Source of the DNA: Candidatus Yanofskybacteria bacterium RIFCSPHIGHO2_01_FULL_41_26 | GTDB taxonomy: Bacteria; Patescibacteriota; Minisyncoccia; 2-02-FULL-40-12; GWA2-44-9 | DNA length: 64,000 bases | Direction of reading: 5' to 3' | Assembly: GCA_001794055.1 (NCBI GenBank) | Contig: MGJB01000006.1 | Span: 26,168 to 90,167 of the forward strand | Shown here: positions 20,051 through 37,482 of the stretch, piece by piece | How the letters are laid out: every line of letters starts with the position of its first letter | Position numbering within the stretch: the first letter of the stretch is position 1 | The notes under the pieces: generated by a model | The model's database searches: none | What the model was told of the DNA's origin: nothing | What the model saw: the letters and a program-made list of their open reading frames with translations, nothing else | Position numbers and translations under genes: made by a program

Positions 20051-20336
20051 CTTTAGTTCCTCTCCAAGTAAAATCTTTCTTAACAAACGTGATGCTGCCA
20101 CCAAGTTTTTTTAAAGCCGCGGCTTCAAATTCTTCTCCCAATGAAACCGGCTTTTCTTCTTTTGGCGCATCTGTATCTTTTAATCCCGGAATCTTATAGT
20201 TCCCCTTTAAAATTTTGTCCATTGTCCAGTTCCTTTTTAAATTGTCAAAAATCTAAGCTGTCTGTCACCATACAACAAAAACCATCGTTTTTCAAGACAG
20301 GTTGTAAAAACATCTTTTTTGTGAAAGAATTTGGGA

Positions 20337-22112
20337 ATGTATTTTAATTCTCCGGATAATCTTCCAGAATCAGAAAAAAAATATGAATATCTGCATTCGA
20401 AAGAAAGAATAGAACACTTGCGTCGTATTATTAACGGCCGGCCCGTGGCCATTTTGGCCGCTGGCCCCTCAATCAGTGAATTAGAAGCAAGAATCGAAGA
20501 ACTATCTCAAACCGATATTTGTTATTTTGGGATGAATTTCTTTTTTGTTCAAGAAGATAATATTTTAAAAAAGATAAATAAGCGTTTTTCCGTGTTAACT
20601 ACGGGAGCCAATAAGGGTTTGCTCCATGTTTACGGCGGGGCCAGCCTTTTTGATAGGATCACTGATTTTTTGAATAGAAATGATGATAATTTGTTAATTT
20701 CCAGTTTCTACGGAAACCAGCTTAATCTGCTTGGTCCCCACTTTAACCTGCAGGAATTTTTAGATAAATATAACAATAAACTCTTTTTCCCCAGCTATAG
20801 TACCAATAGAACTGTTCCGGACAACAATCGTCCCATGCATTTCTTCGCGAGTAATTCTCTCGCCGGACTAATATATATGGCCATAATCGGCAAGGCCTCT
20901 AAAATTGTTCTGTTCGGATCAGACGGCTACACCCTTGAAAAAAATCCTGAAAAAACGTATTACCGTTCCAAAGAATATCTCTCTAACAAATATGAGTATG
21001 AGAGAAATAATCAACAGAAACTAGTGGAACCGCTTATTAACGACGCTAACAAGCTCTTCAACCCTATTGTTCCCCTTTCTTTGCGAAATATCTACAAAAC
21101 CTACCCCATTAAACCTGTTCCAATTTTAAATTGTTCCGAAGTTAGTTATTATACTCCTTTTCCAAAGACCTCATACAACGACACTTTTGCCTTCTTGTTG
21201 GGTAAAAAGAATATTGAAGAAATTGTTGATCTCCGCATCCCAACAGCCTCAATCATCATTCCGTCTTCCGACGACACAAATGAATTGCGGACCACTCTGG
21301 AAAGTATTGCAAAACAATCATATTCAAATTATGAGACAGTCGTTATCAAAAGGAGTCCAAATTTTTTGGATACTATGGAAAACGCCCTATCCTTGACCAA
21401 AGGAAAATATATTTTCTATTGCCATTCGGGCTACGGCTACCGAGACCAAGATTGGTTAAATTCCTGCATAGCAATATTGGAAAATAGGCCCCGGATTTCT
21501 TTAGTATGCGGCATACCCGAAAACCAGCTTACTGACCCTCCCTGGCCGGAAAAAAAGTTCCTCTATTACTGGCTCAAGAAAAAGATTTTCTTCCCTCCAA
21601 ACACAATTTGCGTACGAAAAAAAGTACTCGAAAAATGCCTGCTCCCCCAGGAAGATAATGCAAAAACCGACACTGAATTGGAAAGTTGGCTAAACTTTAA
21701 TCTGCGCTTTAATATTAACGGCTATCTGCCTACTTTTATTTCGACGGTTTCCGATAATAATCGGAATGACTTCATCGACGGTAATTCGCTAGATATTTTC
21801 AGAAAAAAAATTGCATTCTACAGAAAAGGCCTCATTCTTAAAAAAACCTGTCATCATTTCAGAGACGGTGACGACAACATTTTACCTGGAAAATTCTATT
21901 TGAGCATGTTTTTACTATATAAACCAGCTAAAATAATTGAAACCAAATTACTCTGTCCTTTATATCCTCGTTTAAACATTATTAAGCGAATCGCCAGAAA
22001 TACTGTCAAGCAAATAGTCCTACGGATATTAAGTTTAACTTCGTCTTCCATTGAGCGAAAAGCTGTCAATTTGTATCGATCCCTAAAGAAAAAAAGGTTG
22101 CGCGAAAAATAA
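20337..22112 (+). CDS. Two-domain protein: N-terminal DUF115/Maf-like domain plus C-terminal GT2-like glycosyltransferase domain.
   Basis: The N-terminus GRPVAILAAGPSISELEARIE...GANKGLLHVYGGAS parallels the neighbouring DUF115 protein. The C-terminal half has a GT2 signature: ASIIIPSSDDTNELRTTLESIAKQSYSNYETVVI...GKYIFYCHSG. The ORF track begins at a TTG at 20331. The first ATG is at 20337. Confidence 0.5.
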   Translation: MYFNSPDNLPESEKKYEYLHSKERIEHLRRIINGRPVAILAAGPSISELEARIEELSQTDICYFGMNFFFVQEDNILKKINKRFSVLTTGANKGLLHVYGGASLFDRITDFLNRNDDNLLISSFYGNQLNLLGPHFNLQEFLDKYNNKLFFPSYSTNRTVPDNNRPMHFFASNSLAGLIYMAIIGKASKIVLFGSDGYTLEKNPEKTYYRSKEYLSNKYEYERNNQQKLVEPLINDANKLFNPIVPLSLRNIYKTYPIKPVPILNCSEVSYYTPFPKTSYNDTFAFLLGKKNIEEIVDLRIPTASIIIPSSDDTNELRTTLESIAKQSYSNYETVVIKRSPNFLDTMENALSLTKGKYIFYCHSGYGYRDQDWLNSCIAILENRPRISLVCGIPENQLTDPPWPEKKFLYYWLKKKIFFPPNTICVRKKVLEKCLLPQEDNAKTDTELESWLNFNLRFNINGYLPTFISTVSDNNRNDFIDGNSLDIFRKKIAFYRKGLILKKTCHHFRDGDDNILPGKFYLSMFLLYKPAKIIETKLLCPLYPRLNIIKRIARNTVKQIVLRILSLTSSSIERKAVNLYRSLKKKRLREK

Positions 22113-22147
22113 AAAATTGGTAATTGTTATTAATAGGTCATTTCGAC

Positions 22148-23152
22148 ATGATTATATCTCGAACACCATTCCGAATATCTTTTTTTGGTGGAGGCACCGA
22201 TTACCCTGCTTGGTATAAAAAGAACGGCGGGGCCGTTCTTTCAACAACAATCAACAAGTATTGTTATTTAAGTTGTAGAAATTTGCCTCCGTTTTTTAAA
22301 CATACATACCGTGTTGTTTATTCGCGTCAAGAATTAGTAAATAAAATTAAAGACATAGATCATCCCTCTGTCAGACATGCATTAAATTTTCTGAATATAG
22401 ACGGCGGGGTTGAGATACATCACCAAGCCGATCTTCCGGCAAGATCCGGACTTGGTTCAAGTTCATCTTTTACCGTTGGTCTAGTAAATGCTCTAAGCGG
22501 TCTTAAGGGTGAAGTCAAGAACAAAAGACAACTGGCCCTTGACGCAATAAATATTGAACAGAATTTGATAAAAGAAAATGTCGGTTCCCAAGATCAAACA
22601 GCAGCGGCTTTTGGAGGTTTTAATAAAATAAGTTTTGGAGGAATCCAGGAAATATCAATACAACCAATAATTATAAATTCAAACCGTATTGAATCGTTCC
22701 AAAATCACCTGATGTTATTTTTCACCGGTCTTTCAAGAAATGCTTCTAAGATAGCTAGGGAACAGATTAAAAACATTGAAAATAAAGATAAGGAATTAAA
22801 AATAATGCATGAACTTGTCCATGAAGCGACGAACATTCTTACAAACAACAGAGCAGATCTGGCTGAATTCGGTAAATTAATGGGGCAGGGCTGGAAAATA
22901 AAAAAATCCTTGTCATCCAAAATAACAAACCCGTATTTAGATAATATACACGACGTGGGAATGAGAGCAGGAGCATTGGGATGTAAATTGCTTGGCGCCG
23001 GGGGCGGTGGATTTATATTATTTTTTGCAAAACCGGAAGATCAAGAAAAAATTAAAAAGAAACTAAAAAACCTATTATACGTCCCCTTCCGATTCGATCA
23101 TCTTGGCAGTCAAATAATTTACTACGCTCAAGACAACAATGAAACTTATTAA
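22148..23152 (+). CDS. GHMP-family sugar kinase, D-glycero-D-manno-heptose 7-phosphate kinase (HddA)-like.
   Basis: MIISRTPFRISFFGGGTDYP N-terminus, as in HddA. GHMP motif PARSGLGSSSSFTVGLVNAL. The ORF track start at 22124 is a TTG. The ATG at 22148 matches the family N-terminus. Confidence 0.75.
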   Translation: MIISRTPFRISFFGGGTDYPAWYKKNGGAVLSTTINKYCYLSCRNLPPFFKHTYRVVYSRQELVNKIKDIDHPSVRHALNFLNIDGGVEIHHQADLPARSGLGSSSSFTVGLVNALSGLKGEVKNKRQLALDAINIEQNLIKENVGSQDQTAAAFGGFNKISFGGIQEISIQPIIINSNRIESFQNHLMLFFTGLSRNASKIAREQIKNIENKDKELKIMHELVHEATNILTNNRADLAEFGKLMGQGWKIKKSLSSKITNPYLDNIHDVGMRAGALGCKLLGAGGGGFILFFAKPEDQEKIKKKLKNLLYVPFRFDHLGSQIIYYAQDNNETY

Positions 23153-23174: not shown

Positions 23175-23203
23175 TTGACAATACAATTTTTTTTATTTAA
23201 AGT
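23175..23203 (+). promoter_or_regulatory. Candidate sigma-70 promoter: TTGACA, 17-nt spacer, TAAAGT. GGAG SD lies 5 nt before the ATG at 23239.
   Basis: Seen in sequence: ttgaca atacaattttttttatt taaagt. The -10 box is weak. Confidence 0.3.
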
Positions 23204-23238
23204 ATTTCTTATTCTTTAACAATTGCAGTGGAGTAACA

Positions 23239-25122
23239 ATGAGGTCCTCTGATCTGGGAATGATAGCAAATATTTCTCATGCTTTTCGTCCAAATATAAC
23301 CTTAGAAATGTTTCGAAGAATGTGCCTAATCAGATATTTCGAGTTAAATGTAAAGAAAGCATATGACCAAGGATTGATGCCAAAGGCTCCAATTTATCTT
23401 TCTATTGGGCAGGAGACAATTTTTGCAGCCTTATCCATGATTTTTGAAAAAACAGCTTTATTCGGCCAACACAGAGGACATGGCATTTACCTAGCATTCG
23501 GAGGCAATCCAGTAAAACTCATTGACGAGTTACTTGGCCGACCTACCGGTTGTGCCAAAGGCATGGGAGGTTCAGCATCTATTCACTGCCCTGAAATAGA
23601 GATGATCGGTCACGACGGATTGATGGGAACACAAGTTGCTGACGCCGTTGGCAGTACATTGCCTTATAAAGAGACGGCTATTACTTTTATGGGCGATGCT
23701 AGCGCTGAAGAGGGATTTGTTCTTGGGCCAATCGGTTATGCGTTTACCAAACAACTTCCGGTTCTTTTTGTTGTTTGTGATAATGGACTGTCTATTTTAA
23801 CAAAAACAGAAGTTCGCCGAAGCTGGACCATGGCAAGACATGCTCACTTTGGCATGCCATCAATTGATATTACCGACGATCCATGGCTGATAATGCACTA
23901 TGCCAAAGAGTTAAGTAATCCCCTACCCGCTTTAATGAATATTAGAGTTTGCCGAGAACTTTGGCATGCTGGAACAGGAAAAGACAGTGAACCAGAATGG
24001 AATCGATTTAAAATGGTAAGAGAAGAGATGAGACAATTAGACCTTGGCGTATCGGTTGAAACCATAGAAAACGAAATAAAAAGGTGGATAGACAACTTAT
24101 GGGATAAAAAACTTCAAGAACCAACTCCTTGTATATTATCCCCCAGAAAAGTATTTACCATCATTGATCCGAATTACAAATATGAAAGAAACCCGATTCC
24201 TCCACCCAGCAGAATGAAAGTAAAAGAGGTGATTAAGACTTTTACTCGTGATACTTTAAAACGTGGCGGTAAAGCAATGGGCCAATGCCTAACTGCTGTA
24301 GGTTGGGTAGGCGGAACAGTGCCGGAAATGACGGAACAGGAAGGATTGATTGAATTGTCGATGGATGATACATCTGGTTCGGGAATCGCCGTTGGCTGTT
24401 CCAGAAAAGTACCGACTATTTACATAGTCCGCTATCAAGGATTCCAGTGGTTCAACGGCGCATTCATTGCTAACCTTGCCGCAAAATCAAAAGAAATGTG
24501 GGGCATTTCCCGCAGATTATTTGTCCGTTCCATCGCCATGGAGGGCGGTATCGGACCCGTAGCATCTAACAGTCATCACGGAATGTTCACAAGGATACCT
24601 GGTCTCACGGTTGTTGCTCCGATGACACCCGGAGAATACCTACAAATTGTTGAGTATTTTAATAGCCACGATGATCCGATGTATGTAAGCGAGCACAGAA
24701 AAAGTTTTGACATTGATTGTGAGATGCCGGATGTTATAAATCATCCTTCTCACATCACCTTATTTCCAATATCCGCAGCAAGATTAAACACCGCAGAAGC
24801 GGCAAATATTCTTCTGAAAGAAGGGATAATTTGCAACATAATTCATGTTCTTTGGCTTAAACCATTTATTATCAGCAGTGAAATACTGACATCTTTAGAA
24901 AATTCTTACTACGGGGGCGTGGTCCTTGATACCGATTACGAAAACGGAGCCGCAAAATGCATTGCCTGCGATATTATGCAATTTACAAAAAAGAGGGTCC
25001 GTGTTCTCGGTCTTGAAGAAAGAACTGCCGGATTTGCCCCGCACCTTGACAACCTACCGCCATCTACAGAAAAAATATGTGAATGTATACGAAAAATAGT
25101 TGATGGCAAGCAAGAAAAATAA
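23239..25122 (+). CDS. Thiamine-diphosphate-dependent enzyme, a fused 2-oxoacid dehydrogenase E1 alpha plus beta (transketolase-like) polypeptide.
   Basis: N-terminal half has the TPP motif GDASAEEGFVLG...VLFVVCDNG (GDG-X25-NN type). C-terminal half (from about aa 330) has a transketolase pyrimidine-binding/E1-beta-like region (GGIGPVASNSHHGMF...). The fusion is 627 aa. Confidence 0.7.
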   Translation: MRSSDLGMIANISHAFRPNITLEMFRRMCLIRYFELNVKKAYDQGLMPKAPIYLSIGQETIFAALSMIFEKTALFGQHRGHGIYLAFGGNPVKLIDELLGRPTGCAKGMGGSASIHCPEIEMIGHDGLMGTQVADAVGSTLPYKETAITFMGDASAEEGFVLGPIGYAFTKQLPVLFVVCDNGLSILTKTEVRRSWTMARHAHFGMPSIDITDDPWLIMHYAKELSNPLPALMNIRVCRELWHAGTGKDSEPEWNRFKMVREEMRQLDLGVSVETIENEIKRWIDNLWDKKLQEPTPCILSPRKVFTIIDPNYKYERNPIPPPSRMKVKEVIKTFTRDTLKRGGKAMGQCLTAVGWVGGTVPEMTEQEGLIELSMDDTSGSGIAVGCSRKVPTIYIVRYQGFQWFNGAFIANLAAKSKEMWGISRRLFVRSIAMEGGIGPVASNSHHGMFTRIPGLTVVAPMTPGEYLQIVEYFNSHDDPMYVSEHRKSFDIDCEMPDVINHPSHITLFPISAARLNTAEAANILLKEGIICNIIHVLWLKPFIISSEILTSLENSYYGGVVLDTDYENGAAKCIACDIMQFTKKRVRVLGLEERTAGFAPHLDNLPPSTEKICECIRKIVDGKQEK

Positions 25123-25156
25123 CCGTCTTCAGTGACGGTTTTAATTTGCTTTTTTC
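25121..25156 (+). terminator. Rho-independent terminator: aaccgtc-ttcagt-gacggtt hairpin followed by a T-rich tract (ttaatttgcttttttcc).
   Basis: 7-bp stem directly at the stop of the TPP enzyme gene. T-tract downstream. Confidence 0.5.
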
Positions 25157-25172
25157 CTTTATTTCGTATAAT
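25146..25172 (+). promoter_or_regulatory. Candidate promoter TTGCTT, 15-nt spacer, TATAAT. It ends only about 8 nt before the ATG at 25181, so the transcript may be leaderless.
   Basis: Seen in sequence: ttgctt ttttcctttatttcg tataat ttttaaca ATG. No SD is present. Confidence 0.3.
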
Positions 25173-25180: not shown

Positions 25181-25729
25181 ATGATCAAACAAAAAAAACA
25201 ACTGCGAGCAGTCGTAATAACCGCGGAAGGTTTTGAGGATGAAGAGGTAATTTATCCTGTTATACGCCTGAAAGAAGAAGGATTTATTGTTGATATCGCA
25301 ACCAGGGACGCAAAGTTGGTTCTTGGACGCTTGAATTTTCCGCTTGAACTGATTATCCGTTATTATGGGACGCTCGTTAATGCTAAAAAACTTGAGGCCA
25401 AAAATTATGATTTGGTTTTAATCCCGGGCGGATTTGAAGCCCCGGACAGAGTGAGACAAATTCCGGAAATTTTAGAATTCGTCCGCCGGATGAATAGACA
25501 AAAAAAGATCGTCTCTGCTTTCTGCCATGGTCCTTGGGTTTTAATTTCGGCAGGAATAATTAAAGGAAAAAAAATTACGGGCTATATCGGAATTAAAGAT
25601 GATATTAATAATGCCGGTGCCATATATACCGACCAGCCGGCCGTTATTGACGGCAACATCATAACAGCAAGACATCCGCGCGATGTTACCGATCTGATGA
25701 AAGCTATTTTTTCTAAATTTAAGAAATAA
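25181..25729 (+). CDS. DJ-1/PfpI family protein (class I glutamine amidotransferase-like fold).
   Basis: Nucleophile elbow AFCHGPWVL. 182 aa. Shares the architecture typical of PfpI/DJ-1. Confidence 0.8.
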   Translation: MIKQKKQLRAVVITAEGFEDEEVIYPVIRLKEEGFIVDIATRDAKLVLGRLNFPLELIIRYYGTLVNAKKLEAKNYDLVLIPGGFEAPDRVRQIPEILEFVRRMNRQKKIVSAFCHGPWVLISAGIIKGKKITGYIGIKDDINNAGAIYTDQPAVIDGNIITARHPRDVTDLMKAIFSKFKK

Positions 25730-25734: not shown

Positions 25735-26469
25735 ATGCTGAAAAAAATCAAACTATCTTTTGCGGACAAGAAATCTCTTGCAATGAAATCAATTGAAATA
25801 GCTCCAATAAACATTGACTTGTCAAAAATGATAGTTAATAAACCTTGGGGATATGAGTACCTTCTTACAAATACTCCGCTGGTGGAGGTTTGGCATCTAT
25901 CACTTGATTACTTGAAATCAACTTCAACACATTGTCATCCTAACAAAAAAACAGCCCTTGTCGTGTTAGAGGGCAAGGCCCTTTTCTCGACCCTAAATAA
26001 ATCCGTTAAACTCTCCCCGATGGATGCGATAATAATAGATGCTGGTGTTTTTCATTCAACTAAGTGTATCTCAAAAGAGGGTCTTAAATTACTTGAAGTT
26101 GAGACACCCCCGATGAAACATGACTTAATCCGGCTTAAGGATAGATATGGCAGAACTAACGCTGGATATGAAGGCAAAGAAAAGATGCAATTAATAAATA
26201 ACTCTTATGTTAAATTCAAAAGCGAGGAACCTCACGTGGTAAAAAACTTCTGTAATAATTACCTTTGTTTGTCCTTTATACAAAATGACAACGACCTAAG
26301 AATTTTATTGTCCCAAAAGCCAGAGTTGGCAGTAATCTTAAACGGATTCATCAAATCAGCGGATAATAATATCTTATACCGTCTCGGTGATGTCATAAAA
26401 ACCAACACGCTCAAAAACAATAAAATAAAATTTAATAATGTCTCGCTCCTCTCAATTTCAAAAGCCTAA
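25735..26469 (+). CDS. Cupin-domain protein (function unknown; possible sugar ketoisomerase/epimerase-type cupin).
   Basis: Double-stranded beta-helix-like central region with His residues (WGYEYLL...THCHPNKKTALVVLEGKA...AGVFHSTKC). 244 aa. No close family assignment is possible by eye. Confidence 0.4.
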   Translation: MLKKIKLSFADKKSLAMKSIEIAPINIDLSKMIVNKPWGYEYLLTNTPLVEVWHLSLDYLKSTSTHCHPNKKTALVVLEGKALFSTLNKSVKLSPMDAIIIDAGVFHSTKCISKEGLKLLEVETPPMKHDLIRLKDRYGRTNAGYEGKEKMQLINNSYVKFKSEEPHVVKNFCNNYLCLSFIQNDNDLRILLSQKPELAVILNGFIKSADNNILYRLGDVIKTNTLKNNKIKFNNVSLLSISKA

Positions 26470-27103
26470 CAAAAAAGTAATAATTTTCGATTTTGACGGT
26501 GTTCTGGCTGACTCGTTTGACCATTTTTACTCTCTAAACAGGGACGGAATGAAACATGTTGGTCTTTCTTTTACGAAAGAACAATATCGAAATCTGTTTA
26601 TCGGCAATGTCCATCAAGGATTTAAAAATTTTATAAACGATGACCAAAAATATCTAACTTTTTCAGAATTCAGAAACGAAAATTATGACCGAAACTACTA
26701 CAACAAGGAGGGGGGCGTTAAACTGTTTCCGGAAGCACTGACATTTCTGAAAAAAATAGGCGAAAAATACATTCTAACAGTTGCTTCGTCCAGCCACAAA
26801 AACAATATCAAAAATTTATTGGAAAAAAACAAGGTATTAGACATATTTGGGTTAATAATTGCAAACACGACTACAACAAAAGCGGGAATGCTAAATGAAA
26901 TAATGAAAAAATTCAATGCTAAGCCGTCAGAAGTATTGATGATAACCGATACCATTGGTGATATTCTAATAGCAAAAAAGTCCGGTCTTAAAACTATAGC
27001 CGCTACTTGGGGTTTTCATTCTTCAAAATTGTTAAGGTCAGCCAAACCCGATTGCCTTGCCAGTAATTTTAAAATGCTGTATAAACAACTCAAAGCTTTT
27101 TGA
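26438..27103 (+). CDS. HAD-superfamily hydrolase (phosphatase, subfamily IA-like).
   Basis: Motif I VIIFDFDGVLADS. Motif IV ITDTIGDILIAKKSG. It overlaps the previous ORF by 32 nt. Confidence 0.75.
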   Translation: MSRSSQFQKPNKKVIIFDFDGVLADSFDHFYSLNRDGMKHVGLSFTKEQYRNLFIGNVHQGFKNFINDDQKYLTFSEFRNENYDRNYYNKEGGVKLFPEALTFLKKIGEKYILTVASSSHKNNIKNLLEKNKVLDIFGLIIANTTTTKAGMLNEIMKKFNAKPSEVLMITDTIGDILIAKKSGLKTIAATWGFHSSKLLRSAKPDCLASNFKMLYKQLKAF

Positions 27104-27119: not shown

Positions 27120-28313
27120 TTGACCAGTTACAAGTTCCCCTTGGTCACAGACACAATTACCGCAGAAGACAATATTGCTAGAGCTAATTGGCTAATGACC
27201 AACCCCCGATTAACTATGGGGTCTTTGGTTAAAGCATACGAAAACAAATGGTCTCGGTGGGTGGGCAGAAAATATTCTGTTGCCTGCAATTCCGGATCAT
27301 CCGCAAATTTACTTATGTATGACGCCCTACTTCAGTCAGGAAAGCTGCAAAACAAAAAGATCATCGTTCCAAGCTCCGCCTGGGTTACCACCATAGCTCC
27401 AGCCATTCAGCTCGGGTTTGAACCAATTATGTGTGACGCAGATGAATCTAGTTTTGGATTGGACATTGATCATTTAGAAGAATTGCTACTTAAACATAAA
27501 CCTGGAACCGTGATGCTTGTTCAAGTTTTGGGTGTTCCAGCTAATATGGACAAAATAATGCAACTCAAAGAAGATTATGACTTCTTCCTGCTTGAAGACG
27601 CTTGCGCCGCAATGGGTTCATCATATCGCGGCCGTAAAATAGGCACCTTTGGCGACATGTCCAGTATATCAACCTACTTTGGTCACCAATTCTCAACCGT
27701 TGAAGGCGGCATGGTTTCAACCGATGACAAGGAGCTGTATACAATCGCTTTTATGTTGCGCAGTCACGGCTGGATCAACGGGCTTGACCCAGAAACAAGA
27801 GCTCAATATTTAAATAAGCATAGCATCAAAGACATTGGAACCGGATTCGTTTTTCCTTATGCAGGATATAATTTTCGGCTTACTGACGACCATGCTTTTA
27901 TTGGTTTGAGACAATTAGACAGAATGGAATGGCTTATTAGACAAAGATATGGCAACCACCTGCTTTATCAAAAACTGTTAACGGGCCTCTTTGGCTTCCA
28001 AATGTTTGATAAGGATACGACTGTTTGCAGTATTCACTTTTGTGCATTAGCCGAAAGTGAAGATGAAAGAAATTTCATTACTTCGGAACTTCAGGAAAAT
28101 AGCATAGAAACTAGGCCGTTTACTTCAGGCAATCAAGGCCTACAGCCATATTGGTTCAAAAAATATCCCAAATTTAATGGCCAAACGGCTACTCGATTAT
28201 ATGAATGCGGATTCTTTTTACCAAACTATCCGACATTAACTAATTCTGATATTGAACATATTTGTTCGGTAGCGATAAAAGCCGCGCTGGAACACCGTAA
28301 AGGAGACAGATAG
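27120..28313 (+). CDS. DegT-family PLP/PMP-dependent enzyme with His in place of the Schiff-base Lys, i.e. a ColD/E1-like nucleotide-sugar 3-dehydratase.
   Basis: Family fold with SGSSANLL. The active-site segment reads ISTYFGHQFSTVEGG, where canonical aminotransferases have SF..K..T. The K-to-H switch is the hallmark of GDP-4-keto-6-deoxymannose 3-dehydratase (ColD) and of the CDP-sugar E1 dehydrase. TTG start with AGGAG SD. Confidence 0.65.
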   Translation: MTSYKFPLVTDTITAEDNIARANWLMTNPRLTMGSLVKAYENKWSRWVGRKYSVACNSGSSANLLMYDALLQSGKLQNKKIIVPSSAWVTTIAPAIQLGFEPIMCDADESSFGLDIDHLEELLLKHKPGTVMLVQVLGVPANMDKIMQLKEDYDFFLLEDACAAMGSSYRGRKIGTFGDMSSISTYFGHQFSTVEGGMVSTDDKELYTIAFMLRSHGWINGLDPETRAQYLNKHSIKDIGTGFVFPYAGYNFRLTDDHAFIGLRQLDRMEWLIRQRYGNHLLYQKLLTGLFGFQMFDKDTTVCSIHFCALAESEDERNFITSELQENSIETRPFTSGNQGLQPYWFKKYPKFNGQTATRLYECGFFLPNYPTLTNSDIEHICSVAIKAALEHRKGDR

Positions 28314-29248
28314 TGCCCAAAATCCTTGTAACCGGCGGAGCAGGATATATCGGTTCAGTTTTGGTGCCGATGCTTTTGCGAGCCGGACACGAAGTTTTCG
28401 TGCTGGACAATTTTATGTACGGCCAAACATCTCTTCTGGATTGTTGTCATAATTCCTTTTTTAGGGTTGCGAAAGGAGATGTCAGGAATGAGGATCTATT
28501 GCGACATTTGGCAAGACAGTCGGATATAATTATCCACCTTGCTTGTATTGTCGGCGCACCGGCATGCGACAAAGACCCTGTTACCGCCACAAGCATAAAC
28601 CTAGACTCTGTCAGAAGCTTATTAAGGTGTAGAACCTCAAATCAGCCAATAATTTACCCGAATACAAATAGCGGCTATGGAATAGGTCAAGATGGTATTT
28701 ATTGTACCGAAGAAACTCCATTGAACCCCGTTTCGTTGTACGGCCGACTAAAGGTTGCCGCGGAAAAAGAAATACTTAGTCAAGGAAATTCAATAACTCT
28801 GCGCTTGGCCACCGTCTTTGGCACAAGCCCCAGAATGCGTCTTGATCTTTTGGTTAATGATTTTGTTTACCGGGCCGTTAACGACCGTTTCGTTGTTCTT
28901 TTTGAAAGCCACTTCAAGAGAAACTACATCCACGTCCGGGACGTTGCCAGAGCGTTTATGCATTGCATGAACAATTTTGGCACAATGAGAGACCAGACAT
29001 ATAACGTCGGTTTAAGCGATGCCAATTTGTCTAAAAGAGAATTATGCCTAGAGATTCAGAAACAATTGCCGGGTTTTTATTTTCACGAAGCTCCAATCGG
29101 TCAGGATCCTGATAAACGCAACTATATTGTCAGCAATAAAAAAATAGAAAAAACCGGATTCAAACCGGAAATATCATTACGGGAAGGCATAGCCGAATTG
29201 ATAAAAGGTTTCCAAATCATAAGAAACAATCGCTTTGCGAATATTTAA
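28313..29248 (+). CDS. NAD(P)-dependent epimerase/reductase (extended SDR), putative 4-reductase partner of the 3-dehydratase.
   Basis: [19 protein letters not shown] Rossmann motif, YGRLKVAAE (YxxxK). GTG start overlapping the upstream stop, with AAGGAG SD. Confidence 0.75.
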   Translation: MPKILVTGGAGYIGSVLVPMLLRAGHEVFVLDNFMYGQTSLLDCCHNSFFRVAKGDVRNEDLLRHLARQSDIIIHLACIVGAPACDKDPVTATSINLDSVRSLLRCRTSNQPIIYPNTNSGYGIGQDGIYCTEETPLNPVSLYGRLKVAAEKEILSQGNSITLRLATVFGTSPRMRLDLLVNDFVYRAVNDRFVVLFESHFKRNYIHVRDVARAFMHCMNNFGTMRDQTYNVGLSDANLSKRELCLEIQKQLPGFYFHEAPIGQDPDKRNYIVSNKKIEKTGFKPEISLREGIAELIKGFQIIRNNRFANI

Positions 29249-30786: not shown

Positions 30787-31368
30787 ATGAACTCGGTAAA
30801 ATCTTGGATTAAGATCGGCAACAAATCAGTTTTAGCCGAAGGTCGCAGCGGAAAAAGATTGATTAGCCAATTGTTCAAAAATCCAGCGAGCGGCCAACTC
30901 ATCGATTACACTCTTTTTGACGCCGATTTTATTTCTGTCATAATTTTCCCTTTGACAACAAACGGGGAGGTAATCGCCGTCCGACAATTCCGTATGGGAA
31001 TAGATAGGGTATCACTCGAATTACCGGGGGGTAATAAAAAAGTTGAAGATAAAAATTTTATCGAGACAGCCGAAAGAGAGCTGAGGGAAGAAACCGGATA
31101 CAAAGCAGGTCAAATAATTCCGTTAGCAGACAAATTGTGGATAGATCCATCATCATGTACACCCTACCTCTATTCATTCCTGGCTCTGGAATGCAAAAGA
31201 ACAGAAAAGACAGAAGAAGATGCTAACGAAATTATAGAAACAGTGACTATGCCGCAATCAAAGTGGATAGACATGATATCTGGAGGTAAAATATCCGATA
31301 TGAAAACAATCGCCATAACTCTGCTTGCTATTTCTCACTTATCAGATAAACTAATAATCAGTACCTAA
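30787..31368 (+). CDS. Nudix hydrolase.
   Basis: Nudix box GGNKKVEDKNFIETAERELREETGY (Gx5Ex7REuxEExGu). 193 aa. AGGAG SD. Confidence 0.8.
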   Translation: MNSVKSWIKIGNKSVLAEGRSGKRLISQLFKNPASGQLIDYTLFDADFISVIIFPLTTNGEVIAVRQFRMGIDRVSLELPGGNKKVEDKNFIETAERELREETGYKAGQIIPLADKLWIDPSSCTPYLYSFLALECKRTEKTEEDANEIIETVTMPQSKWIDMISGGKISDMKTIAITLLAISHLSDKLIIST

Positions 31369-31385: not shown

Positions 31386-32135
31386 GTGGAAGATAGCTTC
31401 ATTCTGACCAGAGAACAAATCCTGTTTTATAGAAAGAACGGATACTTAGTGGTGCCCCATGTCCTCACTTGCGAACAATGCGATAAGATGAATCAAATCT
31501 TTGAACAGTACGCCAAAGATCACGGTGATAAAGAATTCAAAGGCATAATGAATCTCGACAGAGAAGATCATCGAATAAGAGACCTTTTGCGCTATTATAA
31601 AATTGTTTTAATCCTTGACGCTCTTCAGGATGGCGAGGTTGTAGGTCTTCAATCAATGTTTTTATTTAAAAAAGGCGGAACTGATTATGCTCCGCAGGCC
31701 TGGAACCCACATCAAGATAACGCTTACCCTAGAGCTCCCCACGGTATGTATCTAACCGGCAACATTCCTTTTGCCGACCAAGATAGAGAAAACGGGTGTA
31801 TGTATATTTATCCGGGTTCACACATGGAAAGCCTTCTTCCTGCTGATTTCTTCAAAAGCTTCCACGAAGAACCAGGCAAGAATCCTGGACACGATGTTTC
31901 AAGAAGCCTGCCGTTAGACTATCCGAGAGTTGATTTGCCGATGAAAAAGGGCTCCGTGTTGATTCTTCACGGAAATGTAGTTCATGGTTCATATCCCAAT
32001 AGATCACAGAGAGATAGGCCAATGCTCTTGATACCTTTTGGGACCAAAGGTATAACCCAACAGCCAAATTTTATCCCCGGCAAAACCGCTAAGCGTGAAG
32101 AATTCAGCTTAAGACCCTTAAGCTATAAACTTTGA
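31386..32135 (+). CDS. Fe(II)/2-oxoglutarate-dependent dioxygenase of the phytanoyl-CoA dioxygenase (PhyH) family.
   Basis: Facial-triad candidates HQD (WNPHQDNAY) and a distal His (HGNVVHGSYPNRS). Conserved N-terminal YxxNGY (YRKNGYLVV). 249 aa. Confidence 0.65.
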   Translation: MEDSFILTREQILFYRKNGYLVVPHVLTCEQCDKMNQIFEQYAKDHGDKEFKGIMNLDREDHRIRDLLRYYKIVLILDALQDGEVVGLQSMFLFKKGGTDYAPQAWNPHQDNAYPRAPHGMYLTGNIPFADQDRENGCMYIYPGSHMESLLPADFFKSFHEEPGKNPGHDVSRSLPLDYPRVDLPMKKGSVLILHGNVVHGSYPNRSQRDRPMLLIPFGTKGITQQPNFIPGKTAKREEFSLRPLSYKL

Positions 32136-32269: not shown

Positions 32270-34153
32270 GTGACTGAACCGATTCAGCTCGGGACAAATC
32301 CGGCAATTCAAAAAATTGCCAACAAAATACGACGGGTCCTTCCTTCAGGTTGCAAACGCGTCTTACTTGTCGAGCCACCTAATGTGCCCGAGGAAGATTG
32401 GGATCCCGATGTAGCCACAAACAACAGATATCCAGTTTATGACCCCAAGGGTCTGGCAGTTTTATCATCTTGCATACAATTAAGAGGCTATGAAACGGAT
32501 GTCATGGATCTCAATTTCATGATCCAAGATAGTTTTAAAAATAATCCGAATGGTTTTGAATATCGAAATTGGGAAAACTGGTTAAGACAAAAATTAGGAG
32601 AGTTTAAGCCTCATGTAGTCGGCCTTACTTGTATGTTCACCATATATCATCGTTCTATGACAAGGATTGCCCAATTGATCAAAGAATATAACCCGCAAAT
32701 AATCATCATCGCTGGTGGCGTTCACTCTACTATGGCCTCATCTGATGTTAAATCGGCTCCCGGCCAATTAGTTCTTGAGGACTGTAAAGAAATTGATTTT
32801 GTCGGCCTTTATGAAGGCAATGACAGTTTCCCGGATTTTCTTGACATGGCAAACAACAAACTGGAACCAGAAAACCTCACTCAAATTGCCACATTAGTAG
32901 ATAATAATTATGTAGCCATTACAAGAAGAACGGAACCAAGAACGGAAACACTGAATGCTTTGCCGAATTATCATGACTTGCCAATTGAAAGATATAGCTC
33001 CCTTGGAAGAATCGGCACTTTTTATTGGTTATTTAAGCCGGATACTCGAGCAGCTACCATCCTAGTAAATAGAGGTTGTCGCGCTCATTGCAGATTTTGT
33101 TCAGTAGAGAAGTTCAACGGCAAGGGTGTCGTGTTAAAACGGGACATAGAGATGATTGGTGATGAATTGGAATTCTTAAGAGATAAGTATGGAATTAATC
33201 ATGTAATGATTCTCGACGATGACCTTCTTAATGGAGAGGAGCGGACTGTTGCTCTTTTTGAAGATTGGCAAAAAAGAAAATTAGGCATTACTTGGGATGC
33301 ATCTAATGCGGTGATCGCATCGGCGCTAACTCCAGAAATAGCTCACGCAGCAGCCGAATCAGGATGTATCGCTTTAAGTTTCGGCATTGAATCCGGCAAT
33401 CCTCAAGTGCTTAAAAATATACCCAAACCAAGCGGAGTGCCTCATTATCTCCGGGCCGGTGAAATAATGAAAAAACACCCTCAAATATTCACTAAAGGAT
33501 TGTTAATGGTCGGTTTCCCGCCTGAACCTGAAAGAAATTTTCCCGGCGAATCAATAAGAATGATCTGGGACACCATAAATCTTGCAAAACAAATGGATCT
33601 GGACTGGTATACTATCCAACCCCTTAACCTTATTCCGGGCGTTGAGATGACCAACCATGCCCTAGTCCGAGGAGAGATAACAAAACAAGAATTAATAGAT
33701 GGATCAGAAAGACCGGTAGTAGGTTCGACCGGCAAACAAGACCGGCGAAGCAAAGAAGAGAAGACAAAAGCCTTGCCCTTTATAAGTCATCTTCATGATG
33801 AGAATTTAGACAGAATTCCCCTAAGAAAAGAACTTATCGATATATGGTTCGTAATGGATTATATGGTCAATTATGAGAAACTCTGGAATCTGGAACTTCC
33901 GATCAAAATACAAATGCTCCACAAGCTGTTCGTCAACATGTGTGACAGGACCCATAAAGAGAATGCTTTGGGTAATTTATTCTTTGCTCTTTTAGAGTAC
34001 CGACTTGGACACAAAAAGATGGCAAATGACAGATTAAGATTAGCTAGAGAATTTTCAGCGACTAACGACTATTGGAGGAAAAGGTTTCCAGTATTAGGAT
34101 TAGACGGACTTGTCGAGAAACTACAGCACATGATAGATCAATTACGGGACTAG
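32270..34153 (+). CDS. Cobalamin-binding (class B) radical SAM protein, copy 3, with a long C-terminal extension.
   Basis: B12-binding N-terminus (RVLLVEPP...IIIIAGGVHST). Radical SAM motif GCRAHCRFC. GTG start preceded by GGAGGGAGGG SD. 627 aa. Confidence 0.75.
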   Translation: MTEPIQLGTNPAIQKIANKIRRVLPSGCKRVLLVEPPNVPEEDWDPDVATNNRYPVYDPKGLAVLSSCIQLRGYETDVMDLNFMIQDSFKNNPNGFEYRNWENWLRQKLGEFKPHVVGLTCMFTIYHRSMTRIAQLIKEYNPQIIIIAGGVHSTMASSDVKSAPGQLVLEDCKEIDFVGLYEGNDSFPDFLDMANNKLEPENLTQIATLVDNNYVAITRRTEPRTETLNALPNYHDLPIERYSSLGRIGTFYWLFKPDTRAATILVNRGCRAHCRFCSVEKFNGKGVVLKRDIEMIGDELEFLRDKYGINHVMILDDDLLNGEERTVALFEDWQKRKLGITWDASNAVIASALTPEIAHAAAESGCIALSFGIESGNPQVLKNIPKPSGVPHYLRAGEIMKKHPQIFTKGLLMVGFPPEPERNFPGESIRMIWDTINLAKQMDLDWYTIQPLNLIPGVEMTNHALVRGEITKQELIDGSERPVVGSTGKQDRRSKEEKTKALPFISHLHDENLDRIPLRKELIDIWFVMDYMVNYEKLWNLELPIKIQMLHKLFVNMCDRTHKENALGNLFFALLEYRLGHKKMANDRLRLAREFSATNDYWRKRFPVLGLDGLVEKLQHMIDQLRD

Positions 34154-34211: not shown

Positions 34212-35597
34212 GTGTTGCAAAACGTTGATCCGAACATATTGAAAACAACTAACGCCTTTATGTATACCGAATATCCCCATAAAAGCTTCTGGTCAACTGA
34301 CCTAAGGAGCGACGATTATCACTCGGCATTATTAAAACTGCTTACAGAAGAACCAGATGCTCCACTTTTGTTATATGTTCACATTCTCTACTGTACCCAG
34401 CTTTGTTGGTTCTGCACATGTCATATAGGAGAAATAACCAAAAGTCTGGACAAAAGACAGAATTATCTTGAGATGCTTTATCTAGAAATTAGTCTGTTAA
34501 AAAAAATTATTACTGGACACTCATTGACTCCAAATTTTACGGAAATACACTTAGGTGGTGGCTCTCCAAGCGATCTTGACACGCCTGACTTTGATCGACT
34601 GATAGAAAACTTGGAATCGATGGTAAATATTAGAAATTTGAGCGAATTTTCCATTGAAATAGACCCGAGACACACAACCAGAAAAATGCTTCTGTATTAT
34701 CATAACAAAGGGATAAACAGAATTTCAATAGGCATACAGGACTTCGATCCACAAGTCCAAGCGGCCATTAACCGAGTTCAGTCGATTGAACTAGTAGAAA
34801 ACCTGATGAGTGATGAAACAATCGCTCTTTTTCCAAACGGAGTAAACTTTGACATTATCTGCGGTTTGCCCCATCAAACGACAGATACCATAGCAAGAAC
34901 AATGAATGAATGCGTGCGACTTTCACCGGACAGGATATGCTTAAATTATCTCCACCTAGCTCCTGAGTTTGCAAAACATCAGAACTTGATGTTTGACGGG
35001 AAATACGGCAGACCCAATCATTTGCCCGACTATTACGAAAGGAAAAAACTTTTTGCCGCAGCCCTTGAAATCTTAACCAAAAACGGCTATGTGCGAACTG
35101 GATACGACCATTTTGCCAAATCGACTGATTCTGTGGCGAGAGCAATGTCAGAGGGCAAAATGCATTGGAACTCGTTAGGAGTAACTTCGGGAAGATATAA
35201 TAATGTAATAGGGGTCGGCGTTCACAGTTATAGCACCATTGGAAACAGCTACTTCCAAAACCACTATGATATTCCATCATACAAACACTCGCTTGAACTG
35301 AATACTTTGCCGATATTCCGTGGACACCGGCTGAACAGAGATGACCTGATACGCCGAGACGTAATTCAAACTTTACGCAATTTCTTTTCTGTGGATTTTG
35401 CGAACATTGAAACTAAATACGGAATTATTTTTGAAACCTACTTCAAAACCGAAATAGATACCTTGGACGATTATGTCAAAGACGGACTTGTCAAAATTAG
35501 AGACAGATCAATCGTCATAACGGAAAAAGGATATCAATTTGCCAACACGGTATGCTATGTTTTCGACGCATACAAAAGCCCAAGACCCAAGTTTTAA
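34212..35597 (+). CDS. HemN-like radical SAM protein (coproporphyrinogen-III-oxidase family; HemW / class C radical-SAM-methyltransferase-like).
   Basis: Motif LYVHILYCTQLCWFCTC (CxxxCxxC in a HemN-type context). About 460 aa with a HemN-like C-terminal region. GTG start. Confidence 0.6.
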   Translation: MLQNVDPNILKTTNAFMYTEYPHKSFWSTDLRSDDYHSALLKLLTEEPDAPLLLYVHILYCTQLCWFCTCHIGEITKSLDKRQNYLEMLYLEISLLKKIITGHSLTPNFTEIHLGGGSPSDLDTPDFDRLIENLESMVNIRNLSEFSIEIDPRHTTRKMLLYYHNKGINRISIGIQDFDPQVQAAINRVQSIELVENLMSDETIALFPNGVNFDIICGLPHQTTDTIARTMNECVRLSPDRICLNYLHLAPEFAKHQNLMFDGKYGRPNHLPDYYERKKLFAAALEILTKNGYVRTGYDHFAKSTDSVARAMSEGKMHWNSLGVTSGRYNNVIGVGVHSYSTIGNSYFQNHYDIPSYKHSLELNTLPIFRGHRLNRDDLIRRDVIQTLRNFFSVDFANIETKYGIIFETYFKTEIDTLDDYVKDGLVKIRDRSIVITEKGYQFANTVCYVFDAYKSPRPKF

Positions 35598-36498: not shown

Positions 36499-37482
36499 AT
36501 GAACAAAAGAACGGCGCTTATCACTGGCATTTTTGGATCTGGAGCAAGTTATCTGGCTGAATACATTGTCGCTAATCATCCCAACGTAGAACTTCATGGC
36601 ACTTTTCGTTCGTGTAGTTCCCGCTCTCAAAAAAATATTCAAAGCATTAGAAATAAATTATTTCTTCATAATTGCAACCTGGATGACTATTCCGCCACAT
36701 ACCGATTAATTGCTGGACTAAAACCTGACCTTGTTTTTCACATTGCCTCCTATGCCGACGTAAGGAAATCTTGGGACAAAGCGATCTTTACCCTGCGAAA
36801 TAATATCATCAGTACAGCAAATCTGTTGGAAGCAATCCGATTGGCCAATATACATCCCCGGGTCCAAATGTGCAGTACGCCTGAAGTATATGGTCAAGTA
36901 GATCCCAAAAATATCCCAATTGATGAAAGCTGTCCAATTAATCCAAACAACCCCTATGCCGTATCCAAATTCGCACAAGAATCGCTTGGATATTCTTATT
37001 TCAAAGGCTACGGTCTGCCGATGATTATTACTCGCATGTCCACCTACATCAATCCGAGGCGGGCAGATCTTTTTGCCACCGCATTCGCGATGCAAGTGGC
37101 GCGCATAGAAGCCGGCTTGCAGAAAGAATTGCGACACGGCAATCTTGATTCTACTAGGACCATCCTTGATCCTAGAGACTGCGCCAGCGCCTATTGGGCC
37201 GCCATCGATAAAGGCGAACCCGGCGAGGTCTACAATATTGGCGGGGCCACAATAGTAACGGTGGGGGAATTTCTGGAAATTCTAAAAGTGAAAGCCCTAT
37301 GTTCAGTTCCTTCCAGAGTAGACGAAAATTTGTTTCGGCCGGTAGATGTTACTCTGCAAGTGATAAATACCGAAAAGTTTTTCAAACAAACCAGATGGCA
37401 GCCAAGATTTAGCTTCGAAGAAAGCGTAGAACATCTTCTAAATCACTGCCGGCAGGAAGTCAGGAAAGAACTGCCGAGATGA
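36499..37482 (+). CDS. Extended-SDR nucleotide-sugar dehydratase/reductase, GDP-mannose 4,6-dehydratase-like (Gmd/Rmd-like).
   Basis: ALITGIFGSGASYLAEYIV parallels the Gmd motif [26 protein letters not shown] (YxxxK). 327 aa. Confidence 0.6.
   Translation: MNKRTALITGIFGSGASYLAEYIVANHPNVELHGTFRSCSSRSQKNIQSIRNKLFLHNCNLDDYSATYRLIAGLKPDLVFHIASYADVRKSWDKAIFTLRNNIISTANLLEAIRLANIHPRVQMCSTPEVYGQVDPKNIPIDESCPINPNNPYAVSKFAQESLGYSYFKGYGLPMIITRMSTYINPRRADLFATAFAMQVARIEAGLQKELRHGNLDSTRTILDPRDCASAYWAAIDKGEPGEVYNIGGATIVTVGEFLEILKVKALCSVPSRVDENLFRPVDVTLQVINTEKFFKQTRWQPRFSFEESVEHLLNHCRQEVRKELPR

Follow-up and report, generated by a model that had tools for sequence, protein, structure and literature searches.

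We describe here a 64,000-nucleotide stretch of DNA (64 kb, hereafter "the window") from Candidatus Yanofskybacteria bacterium RIFCSPHIGHO2_01_FULL_41_26 (contig MGJB01000006.1, positions 26,168–90,167) and, within it, a forward-strand gene at window positions 23239–25122 whose 627-aa product resembles the alpha and beta subunits of a pyruvate dehydrogenase (PDH) E1 joined in one chain, i.e., a thiamine diphosphate (ThDP) enzyme set among sugar genes. A preliminary description of this DNA had proposed that the enzyme transfers a two-carbon branch to a sugar. Homologs of all window proteins were mapped in 90 related loci, gathered by exact-protein look-ups and a scan of species-representative genomes, and among these loci the E1 homologs fall into two clades: T1, which holds the window protein and relatives at least 43% identical to it, and the PDH-like T2, whose members are 25–36% identical to it.

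The fused E1-like gene and its cofactor site

The gene and the parts of its product, all on the forward strand, are as follows.
23239..25122 (+): fused E1-alpha/E1-beta-like ThDP enzyme of the T1 clade, 627 aa (Pfam, NCBIfam and PDB matches, structural model, fold search)
23239..24123 (+): E1-alpha-like diphosphate-binding (PP) domain, residues 1–295 (E1_dh match, human PDH E1-alpha match, H243)
23692..23784 (+): ThDP/Mg2+ motif GDA-x27-DN, canonically GDG...NN, read in translation and invariant in T1
24124..24216 (+): alpha–beta fusion linker, residues ~296–326 (model confidence 55 at residues 301–310; split point in orthologs)
24217..24738 (+): E1-beta-like Pyr domain, residues 327–500, with H446 in "SHHG" (1W85_B profile, invariant columns)
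24367..24369 (+): Asp377, aligned without gaps to the Glu that activates the cofactor (Geobacillus stearothermophilus E1-beta Glu59)
24739..25119 (+): Transketolase_C-like domain, residues 501–627 (PF02780 on homologs, 1W85_B alignment, model)

The open reading frame (ORF) runs uninterrupted for 627 codons from an ATG, with a GGAG Shine–Dalgarno sequence ~6 nt 5' of the start; promoter and terminator scans around the gene returned nothing above shuffled expectation. Because the identical protein is annotated on 20 public contigs and full-length homologs are 46–81% identical to it, we take the ORF to be real rather than a chance one. Pfam recognizes E1_dh at residues 53–215 (E=1.8e-13) and, below threshold, Transket_pyr at residues 382–489, and matches to PF02779 and PF02780 are precomputed on homologs. 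The nearest PDB entries by sequence are human PDH E1-alpha (1e-13, residues 22–189) and the E1-alpha of branched-chain 2-oxo-acid dehydrogenase (BCKDH), while a profile of the C-terminal half (residues 325–627) matches the PDH E1-beta chain of G. stearothermophilus (1W85_B) at E=7e-17, in an alignment that reaches residue 280, and human E1-beta at 1e-12. The AlphaFold model, made with 23 homologs (predicted local distance difference test, pLDDT, 84; predicted template-modeling score, pTM, 0.85), has the three-domain transketolase/E1 fold—two alpha/beta domains and a C-terminal domain, with a low-confidence linker at ~residues 296–326. Its full-length Foldseek matches are transketolases and 2-oxoglutarate/2-oxoadipate E1s, alike in their single-chain, three-domain plan, and the top ones are of the transketolase/1-deoxy-xylulose-5-phosphate synthase (TK/DXS) type (TM about 0.62–0.66, identity 12–14%). 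Yet neither NCBIfam nor Pfam gave a TK or DXS family match at E<=1e-3, and the TPP_enzyme_N/M/C architecture was not found, Pfam giving E1_dh and Transket_pyr only. On its predicted PP, Pyr and C domains, the protein is thus assigned to the superfamily of heterotetrameric 2-oxo-acid dehydrogenase E1s (alphaKADH2).

The cofactor motif (GDASAEEGFVLGPIGYAFTKQLPVLFVVCDN) and the catalytic histidines are preserved: G152, D153, D181, N182, H243, and H446 are invariant across the T1 clade, whose sequences keep a mean column identity of 62% across phyla, and a manual register of motifs equates H243 with human E1-alpha His263 and H446 with the catalytic His of the beta chain. At another position T1 departs from the E1 pattern. 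When SMDDTSGSGIAVG is aligned without gaps to PLAESGIGGLAIG, Asp377 falls on Glu59 of G. stearothermophilus E1-beta, an equivalence drawn from the alignment only; this column is Asp in T1 (in 90% or more of its members) and Glu in T2, whose motifs are canonical (TPxxE, QHSQ, GD...NN). If the register is correct, an Asp in place of the ThDP-activating Glu would be unusual for a ThDP enzyme.

The protein also stands at some distance from housekeeping 2-oxo-acid dehydrogenases. It scores 97.2 bits against the E1-alpha PDH model TIGR03182 (cutoff 393.85) and 27.7 bits against the E1-beta PDH model NF006667 (cutoff 321), whereas the T2 proteins score 247–294 bits (alpha) and 247–318 bits (beta). 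No E2 or E3 gene was found in the window, either by tblastn with Escherichia coli AceF and Lpd or by Pfam on nearly all ORFs of at least 100 aa. E2 homologs occur in 3 of the 90 related loci (L068, L076, and L083), all among the most distant matches, and tblastn found Lpd homologs in none of the 90.

T1 and T2 clades and their gene partners

Three genes directly follow the E1 gene.
25181..25729 (+): PfpI/DJ-1-family protein whose Cys-His nucleophile elbow reads "FCHGP" (TIGR01382, 146.6 bits against a cutoff of 139)
25735..26469 (+): 244-aa 3-His cupin with H66, H68, and H107 (Pfam Cupin_2; invariant residues)
26438..27103 (+): HAD-IA phosphatase, phosphoglycolate-phosphatase-like and not GmhB-like (HAD_2, 4.6e-25; NF009695, 71.6 bits)

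The DJ-1 protein is closest to PH1704/PfpI (8e-32). The cupin carries the invariant elements PWG.E, H66-x-H68, H107, and "ETPPMKHDLxRLxDxYGR"; at the position where sugar isomerases of the cupin type use a Glu both to bind the metal and as catalytic base, it has K/T. It shows weak similarity to type II phosphomannose isomerases (PMI; PF01050, 1e-3; C-terminus of TIGR01479, 1.4e-5; the "D.YGR" motif). By sequence it has no match in the PDB, and a groundwater MAG of Candidatus Yanofskybacteria encodes the same cupin at 100% identity. Its model (pLDDT 88) returned quercetinase, cysteine dioxygenase, oxalate decarboxylase, BacB, AerE, KdgF, and archaeal PMI in Foldseek, i.e., generic metal cupins and bicupins rather than RmlC, and together with the lack of a PDB sequence match this leaves an RmlC/Cj1430-type epimerase unsupported.

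The link between these partners and the T1 enzyme is conserved. Frequencies were taken over 17 related T1 loci and 45 T2 loci longer than 12 kb; with the window and the shorter loci the T1 set comes to 20. The cupin is present in 17/17 T1 loci (20/20 in the wider set) and the DJ-1 gene in 15/17, and neither occurs in any of the 45 T2 loci; the HAD-IA gene is found in at least 12 of the 20. T1 loci also carry the HddA-like kinase (13/17), the Cj1427-like short-chain dehydrogenase/reductase (SDR; 10/17, 46–77% identity), the SDR resembling GDP-mannose 4,6-dehydratase (GMD-like; window 36499–37482; 10/17), two reductases resembling GDP-fucose synthase (37479–38432 in 12/17; 40723–41721 in 11/17, 44–63% identity), the ColD-like gene (7/17), PhyH (8/17), B12-binding radical SAM (7/17) and HemN-like (5/17) enzymes, and SIS/GmhA (4/17). 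In the T2 loci, HddA-like kinases (32/45), Cj1427-like SDRs (30/45, 53–65% identity), and ColD-like genes (31/45) recur and PhyH is absent (0/45). All 20 T1 loci lie within sugar-nucleotide clusters, and most have an SDR that would generate a 4-keto group (Cj1427- or GMD-like, or PglF-like in L007).

The two clades differ in hosts as well as in partners. T1 occurs in the candidate phyla radiation (CPR; Yanofsky-, Sungii-, Lipton-, and Saccharibacteria), in DPANN archaea (Nano- and Pacearchaeota), and in Omnitrophota, Elusimicrobia, Terriglobia, and SAR11 Pelagibacteraceae; T2 occurs in cyanobacteria, Planctomycetota, Alpha-, Beta-, and Gammaproteobacteria, Acidobacteriota, Nitrospirota, and others. 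Split T1 E1 genes with cupin, DJ-1, and Cj1427-/GMD-like genes were seen in Pacearchaeota (L017), Nanoarchaeota (L015), and single-cell genomes of Pelagibacteraceae/SAR11 (L018–L020), and the presence of the T1 unit in both DPANN archaea and SAR11 therefore points to horizontal spread of the module between domains. The T2 layout is stereotyped: GmhA, HddA, SDR, E1, ColD-type DegT, and then reductases, with SIS/GmhA homologs adjoining HddA in many loci, HddC-type nucleotidyltransferases in 34, and GmhB-type phosphatases in 17. A dehydratase His is present in 54 of the 59 DegT proteins encoded next to E1 genes. Examples of the T2-type cassette, with the E1 (alpha/beta or fused) at about 10001–11900, are L022, L023, L029, L041, L043, L045, L046, L048, L049, L060, and L072, and its hosts also include Poribacteria.

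Whether alpha and beta are fused or split was judged by a frame-continuity test. Of the T1 loci, six have the fused form (the window, L001, L003, L005, L009, and L010) and 14 the split one; in T2, six are fused and 43 split. The split T1 genes overlap by 3–37 nt or are separated by 12–45 nt, at the position of the linker of the fused protein. The alpha–beta fusion is lineage-specific and not a defining trait of T1. Other fusions, independent of one another, join the E1 to its partners, namely cupin–E1alpha (P0052, P0055, and P0193) and, in L007 (6118–9893), a 779-aa B12-radical SAM–E1-alpha protein (P0061) encoded beside a 487-aa E1-beta–DJ-1/PfpI protein; because such fusions exist, we regard the partners as tied to the reaction of the E1. 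In L007 these fusions are followed by cupin and HAD genes and adjoined by a 748-aa PglF-like 4,6-dehydratase, with no GHMP kinase, which suggests a portable T1 unit that is usually accompanied by a generator of 4-keto sugars. The T1 clade is small: a profile search of 1.84 billion representative proteins gave 336 matches at E<=1e-30, among which full-length fused T1 proteins form two clusters at 50% identity and most T1 matches are ~300-aa alpha or beta chains. Two N-terminally extended relatives (P0319 and P0329) have no recognizable extra domain.

One lineage shows a further arrangement, with an HpcH/HpaI-like aldolase fragment, a sulfotransferase, and a gene resembling adenosine phosphosulfate kinase/cytidylyltransferase directly upstream of the E1 (L003, 6845–9079). 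This arrangement, kept nowhere else, may mean that the lineage uses a keto-acid donor or makes a sulfated sugar; an HpaI-type aldolase as general supplier of the donor was rejected, as L003 alone among the T1 loci has one.

The surrounding GDP-heptose genes

In the window the E1 gene stands within a co-directional run (20331–29248) of Maf/GT2-like, GHMP kinase, E1, PfpI/DJ-1, cupin, HAD-IA, DegT, and SDR genes, and Pfam on nearly all ORFs of at least 100 aa marks the whole 64 kb as glycan biosynthesis. The neighbors other than the three partners are the following.
20331..22112 (+): 593-aa Maf/GT2-like protein
22124..23152 (+): HddA-like GHMP kinase of the D-glycero-D-manno-heptose-7-P type (NF049969, 6.5e-45)
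27120..28313 (+): ColD-type sugar 3-dehydratase (DegT family), dependent on pyridoxamine phosphate (PMP; ColD 2GMS, 4.5e-47; RfbH/E1 dehydrase also close)
28313..29248 (+): Cj1427-like NAD-dependent sugar-nucleotide C4-dehydrogenase, an SDR (PDB 6VO6, 1.3e-117)
30787..31368 (+): NUDIX protein (Pfam; homologs in eight T1 loci)
31386..32135 (+): PhyH-family Fe/2-oxoglutarate dioxygenase (Pfam)
32270..34153 (+): B12-binding radical SAM enzyme (Pfam, NCBIfam)
34212..35597 (+): HemN-like radical SAM enzyme (TIGR00538, 348.7 bits)
36499..37482 (+): divergent GDP-mannose/heptose 4,6-dehydratase-like (GMD-like) SDR (PF16363, 1.4e-59; TIGR01472, 131.6 bits, below cutoff)
37479..38432 (+): GDP-fucose-synthase-like epimerase/reductase (NF047922, 148.6 bits)
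40723..41721 (+): GDP-fucose-synthase-like reductase (NF047922, 144 bits; PDB GDP-fucose synthases, 1e-30 to 1e-33)
45650..46246 (-): GmhA-like SIS isomerase (SIS_2, 1.3e-16)

The identities of these neighbors lead us to read the surroundings of the E1 as GDP-heptose chemistry. The closest PDB relatives of the kinase are heptose kinases (3K85, 4USK, and 4N3O; 1e-34 to 1e-42). When the DegT protein (STYFGHQFSTVEGG) is compared with ColD (SFYSHHIATMEGG), His189 falls on ColD His188, where aminotransferases have the lysine that binds pyridoxal phosphate, and the protein is therefore assigned as a PMP-dependent 3-dehydratase. The Cj1427-like, ColD-type, and GMD-like genes all lie within 12 kb of the E1. 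In Campylobacter jejuni, as Raushel and colleagues showed, Cj1427 (with alpha-ketoglutarate) makes GDP-4-keto-heptose, and a ColD-like C3-dehydratase of strain type HS:5 converts this to GDP-3-deoxy-4-keto-heptose (PMC10680097). From the C. jejuni-type set that makes the heptose, HddA-like and GmhA-like genes are seen in the window, and the latter (45650–46246) is a possible start of the pathway; the full set of GmhA, HddA, GmhB, and HddC is found in the related locus L023 and is widespread among the others.

The preliminary description had reported the fused 627-aa ORF with its TPP motif, the absence of E2/E3 partners nearby, a heptose-type GHMP kinase on one side and DJ-1, cupin, and HAD genes on the other, and a 3-dehydratase downstream. 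All of these are borne out: the genes lie where it placed them, kinase and dehydratase are confirmed by their family and structural matches, the absence of E2 and E3 extends across the whole window, and the domain search it had suggested recovered E1_dh, with the E1-beta-like half confirmed by profile rather than by the sub-threshold Transket_pyr match.

The window also holds other glycan genes. A legionaminic-type set on the reverse strand (8834–17269) comprises a LegB-like protein with a CBS domain, a LegC-like protein, a hexapeptide transferase, a 2-epimerase, NeuB, and a CMP-transferase, accompanied by WbuX/HisH/HisF amidotransferase genes, and a second nonulosonic/ulosonic set (45650–54631) holds NeuB (46246–47220), the SIS gene, three KdsC-like HADs, and a CTP_transf_3 gene (53167–53931). 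Two Maf/MptE-like proteins, at 18983–20104 (-) and 20331–22112 (+), belong to a family of glycosyltransferases that add nonulosonic acids to flagellin; CPR bacteria are not known for flagella, and a pilin or a surface protein may be the target here. Because NeuB and Maf homologs were found in none of the 17 related T1 loci, we place the E1 in the heptose module rather than with the adjoining legionaminic-acid/Maf genes, and a functional link to the latter was rejected.

Five B12-binding radical SAM genes lie in the window, at 17419–18999 (-), 29276–30643 (-), 32270–34153 (+), 38514–40658 (+), and 51420–53144 (+). One of the five proteins resembles the KedN5-family C-methyltransferases (244 bits, below cutoff), and together with the HemN-like enzyme they suggest extensive C-methylation or rearrangement of sugars. 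Toward the distal end, a GT2 (53942–54631, 229 aa), a YfhO-family membrane protein (57717–60104, 795 aa), and a CDP-glycerol glycerophosphotransferase-like protein (60081–61460) form a trio that resembles the machinery of Gram-positive teichoic-acid synthesis and glycosylation, and a pyruvoyl-dependent arginine decarboxylase (PvlArgDC, 1.2e-60; 3190–3792, +) lies amid glycosyltransferase and flippase genes.

Candidate chemistries, known relatives, and significance

Three classes of ThDP enzymes are described that transfer an acyl anion equivalent onto a nucleoside diphosphate (NDP)-keto-sugar and thereby branch it, the transketolases having been proposed as the third (PMC9306805; PMC12247030; PMC4753412). 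YerE-like enzymes of the decarboxylase family act on 3,6-dideoxy-4-keto sugars in lipopolysaccharide and lipooligosaccharide pathways, and take as donors pyruvate or alpha-keto acids made for the purpose (PMC9306805). The alphaKADH2 (E1 alpha/beta) enzymes of antibiotic pathways add a pyruvate-derived C2 unit; about 120 clusters have been mined, and KbDH-alpha/beta adds such a unit to cyclic ketones in vitro (PMC12247030). Because these classes are known, because enzymes for GDP-3-deoxy-4-keto-heptose lie beside the E1, and because the T1 enzymes lack E2 and E3 and always occur in sugar clusters, we give about even credence to the T1 E1 being an E2/E3-independent ThDP carboligase by which an NDP-keto sugar gains a carbon branch; the specific version, in which a pyruvate-derived C2 is added at C4, would claim only about half of that credence. 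For donor, acceptor, branch position, and partner roles we propose the following scheme. The enzyme would decarboxylate a 2-oxo acid (pyruvate being the default guess) to a ThDP-bound acyl-carbanion, which would add to the carbonyl of a GDP-linked keto-heptose. The neighboring Cj1427-like C4-dehydrogenase would supply this acceptor, alone or helped by the ColD-type 3-dehydratase or the GMD-like 4,6-dehydratase. A C-branched heptose (with an acyl or hydroxyalkyl branch) would result, open to tailoring by the co-clustered reductases, B12-radical-SAM methylases, and PhyH hydroxylase, while the cupin, PfpI/DJ-1, and HAD-IA proteins would probably supply an unusual donor or process the new alpha-hydroxy-ketone.

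Several observations weigh against this scheme. T1 shares three loci (L001, L008, and L009) with a PDH-like T2 pair, so that its reaction is not simply that of T2 and the two functions are taken as non-redundant, and in L008 the T2 pair rather than T1 is interleaved with the ColD-type gene, which accompanies T1 in only the minority of loci counted above. In the compact loci L006 and L016, nothing within 10 kb stands out as a 4-keto generator, and the 64 kb of the window hold neither an HddC-like/RfaE-II-like nucleotidyltransferase nor a GmhB-type phosphatase, although the gene that activates heptose-1-phosphate may lie elsewhere in the genome. Finally, the Asp that replaces the near-universal activating Glu could mean altered or weak catalysis. 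The placing of an acetyl unit on a 3-deoxy-4-keto-heptose would, on these comparisons, be better assigned to T2, and T1 probably does something related but distinct (another donor, another position, or acyloin processing); the window has no T2 pair, and T1 could still do the branching there. More tentatively, and with rather less than even confidence, we suggest that the T1 unit is an unrecognized, portable multi-enzyme ThDP system with an Asp-activated site that makes a non-acetyl change to the sugar skeleton (through an unusual donor, a processed acyloin, or chain extension) and yields undescribed surface sugars in CPR, DPANN, and SAR11.

The proposals of the preliminary description can be set against these results. 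Its appeal to E1 alpha/beta enzymes that place C2 branches on sugars in antibiotic pathways concerns an accepted class (PMC12247030; PMC4753412), and the association with sugar genes that it proposed to look for in related genomes is general, as all T1 loci show. It had also named a complete E2/E3 complex and a placement among housekeeping PDHs as observations that would count against it, and neither came to light within the 64 kb, the 90 loci, or the family scores. The transfer of a C2 branch itself fares less evenly: an E2/E3-free E1 in a heptose locus beside a 3-dehydratase agrees with it, but the clade coupled to the 3-dehydratase across phyla is T2, not T1. Similarly, a modified-sugar locus was rightly called and can be specified as GDP-heptose, whereas the obligate cupin, DJ-1, and HAD partners were left unexplained and the fusion that it featured proved lineage-specific.

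Among the alternatives, that an ordinary housekeeping E1 (of pyruvate, acetoin, or branched-chain 2-oxo-acid dehydrogenase) has come by chance to lie in a glycan island is one we discount almost entirely. The best matches to family models and PDB entries are indeed PDH and BCKDH E1 subunits, but the scores against the curated PDH models (97 versus 394 and 28 versus 321 bits) fall far short, neither the window nor the surroundings of any T1 or stereotyped T2 locus contain an E2 or E3 gene, and all homologs sit inside sugar clusters; CPR bacteria are generally not known to have the TCA cycle or lipoate-dependent complexes, which we count against it as well. A catalytically crippled E1-like scaffold with a structural or regulatory role would account for the Glu-to-Asp exchange, the GDA...DN motif, and the marked divergence from active E1s. 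We think this very improbable, since Asp retains the carboxylate and is itself conserved, the Mg ligands D153 and N182 and the catalytic H243 and H446 are all invariant, and conservation across phyla is strong. Rather improbable, too, is a de novo ketose-phosphate synthase of the DXS/transketolase kind, whose product a PMI-like cupin would turn into an aldose, the HddA-like kinase would phosphorylate at C1, and the HAD would relieve of its distal phosphate. Such a route would be analogous to the GDP-heptose and lincosamide-octose pathways and would suit the single-chain PP–Pyr–C architecture, the gene order kinase–E1–DJ1–cupin–HAD, the cupin–E1alpha fusions, the PMI-like features of the cupin, and the rarity of SIS/GmhA in T1 loci. 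Against it, the sequence matches 2-oxo-acid E1s and not TK or DXS, the window has its own GmhA-like SIS, and the kinase is orthologous to that of T2 loci, where a canonical GmhA is present; the canonical GmhA genes in many loci, the window among them, the kinase-less L007 with its PglF-like enzyme, and the K/T in place of the isomerase Glu also weaken the candidacy of the cupin as a PMI-like isomerase feeding the kinase.

We regard as unlikely a side-chain- or donor-processing role in which installing the primary branch is not the task of the T1 E1. The enzyme might cleave or decarboxylate a special 2-oxo acid or acyloin that the cupin, PfpI, and HAD proteins make or consume, and so give an aldehyde or acyl unit, or it might extend or trim a side chain, e.g., by carboligation to a sugar aldehyde, perhaps passing an acyl group to the PfpI cysteine. 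The non-redundancy of T1 and T2 in three loci and the obligate, physically fused partners speak for such a role, as do the structural neighbors of the cupin, which include the alpha-keto-acid bicupins BacB and AerE, several 3-His dioxygenases, and KdgF. Precedents exist in YerE-type enzymes that use functionalized, tailor-made alpha-keto acids from dedicated cluster enzymes (PMC9306805) and in the alphaKADH2 member Ao:DCPIP OR, which cleaves acyloins and diketones (PMC12247030). Yet no aldolase or recognizable keto-acid-forming enzyme is conserved with T1, the HpaI-like gene being confined to L003; most T1 loci lack a T2 enzyme as co-worker; and the chemistry proposed for PfpI and cupin is speculative.

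The proposed addition of a carbon branch to a keto-heptose has its closest precedent in the antibiotic E1s, i.e., AviB1/AviB2 (avilamycin), AlmDI/DII (aldgamycin), the paulomycin E1 pair, and KbDH-alpha/beta (kibdelomycin), which likewise are E1 alpha/beta enzymes without E2/E3 and likewise lie in deoxysugar clusters beside makers of NDP-keto-sugars, followed by potentially tailoring reductases, methylases, and hydroxylases (PMC12247030; PMC4753412). These are split pairs of actinomycete secondary metabolism that act on dTDP/NDP-deoxyhexoses, whereas the T1 enzyme here is fused and, together with GDP-heptose enzymes, is encoded in a cell-surface glycan island of a CPR bacterium; T1 further differs in its extreme divergence (Asp for the activating Glu, the GDA...DN motif) and the obligate cupin/PfpI/HAD partners, and the likeness is one of published descriptions and context. 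With YerE, ErwE, MMAR_2332, and MyGE the shared element is logic, in that a 3-dehydratase turns the NDP-sugar into its 3-deoxy-4-keto form, an acyl unit drawn from an alpha-keto acid is then attached by a ThDP enzyme, and a reductase follows (PMC9306805), and T2 beside a ColD-type dehydratase follows that yersiniose pathway logic. The YerE type, however, has the acetolactate-synthase-like TPP_enzyme_N/M/C architecture of an unrelated superfamily, and its acceptors are CDP-hexoses rather than GDP-heptoses. To the GDP-heptose pathway of C. jejuni the window is related through its close homologs of HddA, Cj1427, the ColD-type C3-dehydratase, a 4,6-dehydratase, and GDP-fucose synthase (PMC10680097), but it lacks HddC and GmhB homologs from the C. 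jejuni set (GmhA, HddA, GmhB, and HddC); the C. jejuni pathways, which also include C4-reductases, in turn have no ThDP enzyme, PfpI, or radical SAM protein, and their cupins are RmlC-like epimerases where the window has a 3-His metal cupin. PDH, BCKDH, and acetoin dehydrogenase E1s (alpha2beta2) share domains, ThDP/Mg motif, and catalytic histidines with T1 and are its best sequence matches, and differ from the T1 enzyme here by its fusion, the absence of E2/E3, Asp for Glu, sub-cutoff scores, and the sugar cluster. Transketolase and DXP synthase have the same single-chain PP–Pyr–C fold, at the low identity and with the lack of family matches given above.

The literature we searched holds no description of E1-type ThDP enzymes in GDP-heptose or cell-surface glycan clusters, of fused forms, or of the T1–cupin–PfpI–HAD unit, and the review section on the alphaKADH2 sugar-branching class mentions neither heptose nor fusions (PMC12247030). 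Enzyme class and chemical logic are thus already known, while the GDP-heptose setting, the fusion, and the T1 unit are new within the literature searched. C-branched sugars of the cell surface have so far been credited to YerE-type enzymes, and E1-type branching enzymes have so far been confined to actinomycete antibiotic pathways; the loci described here indicate that, across many phyla, E1-type ThDP enzymes belong to the conserved gene content of GDP-heptose modification clusters. From the T2 cassette, C-branched 3-deoxy-heptoses are predicted in many cultivable bacteria, e.g., Skermanella aerolata (strain KACC 11604, L072), Niveispirillum lacus (L061), and Microcoleus, the loci L049 and L023 being of Microcoleus or Floridaenema, and GDP-4-keto-heptose and GDP-3-deoxy-4-keto-heptose can already be obtained enzymatically. 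If our reading is true, the T1 clade would offer a natural test of whether Asp can stand in for the "universal" ThDP-activating Glu, and these proteins would be new ketone-accepting carboligases of biocatalytic interest. As T1 occurs in ecologically dominant, uncultured or hard-to-study groups—CPR, DPANN, and SAR11—the same reading, if true, would mean that microbial surfaces carry branched or extended heptoses of a large family yet to be explored.

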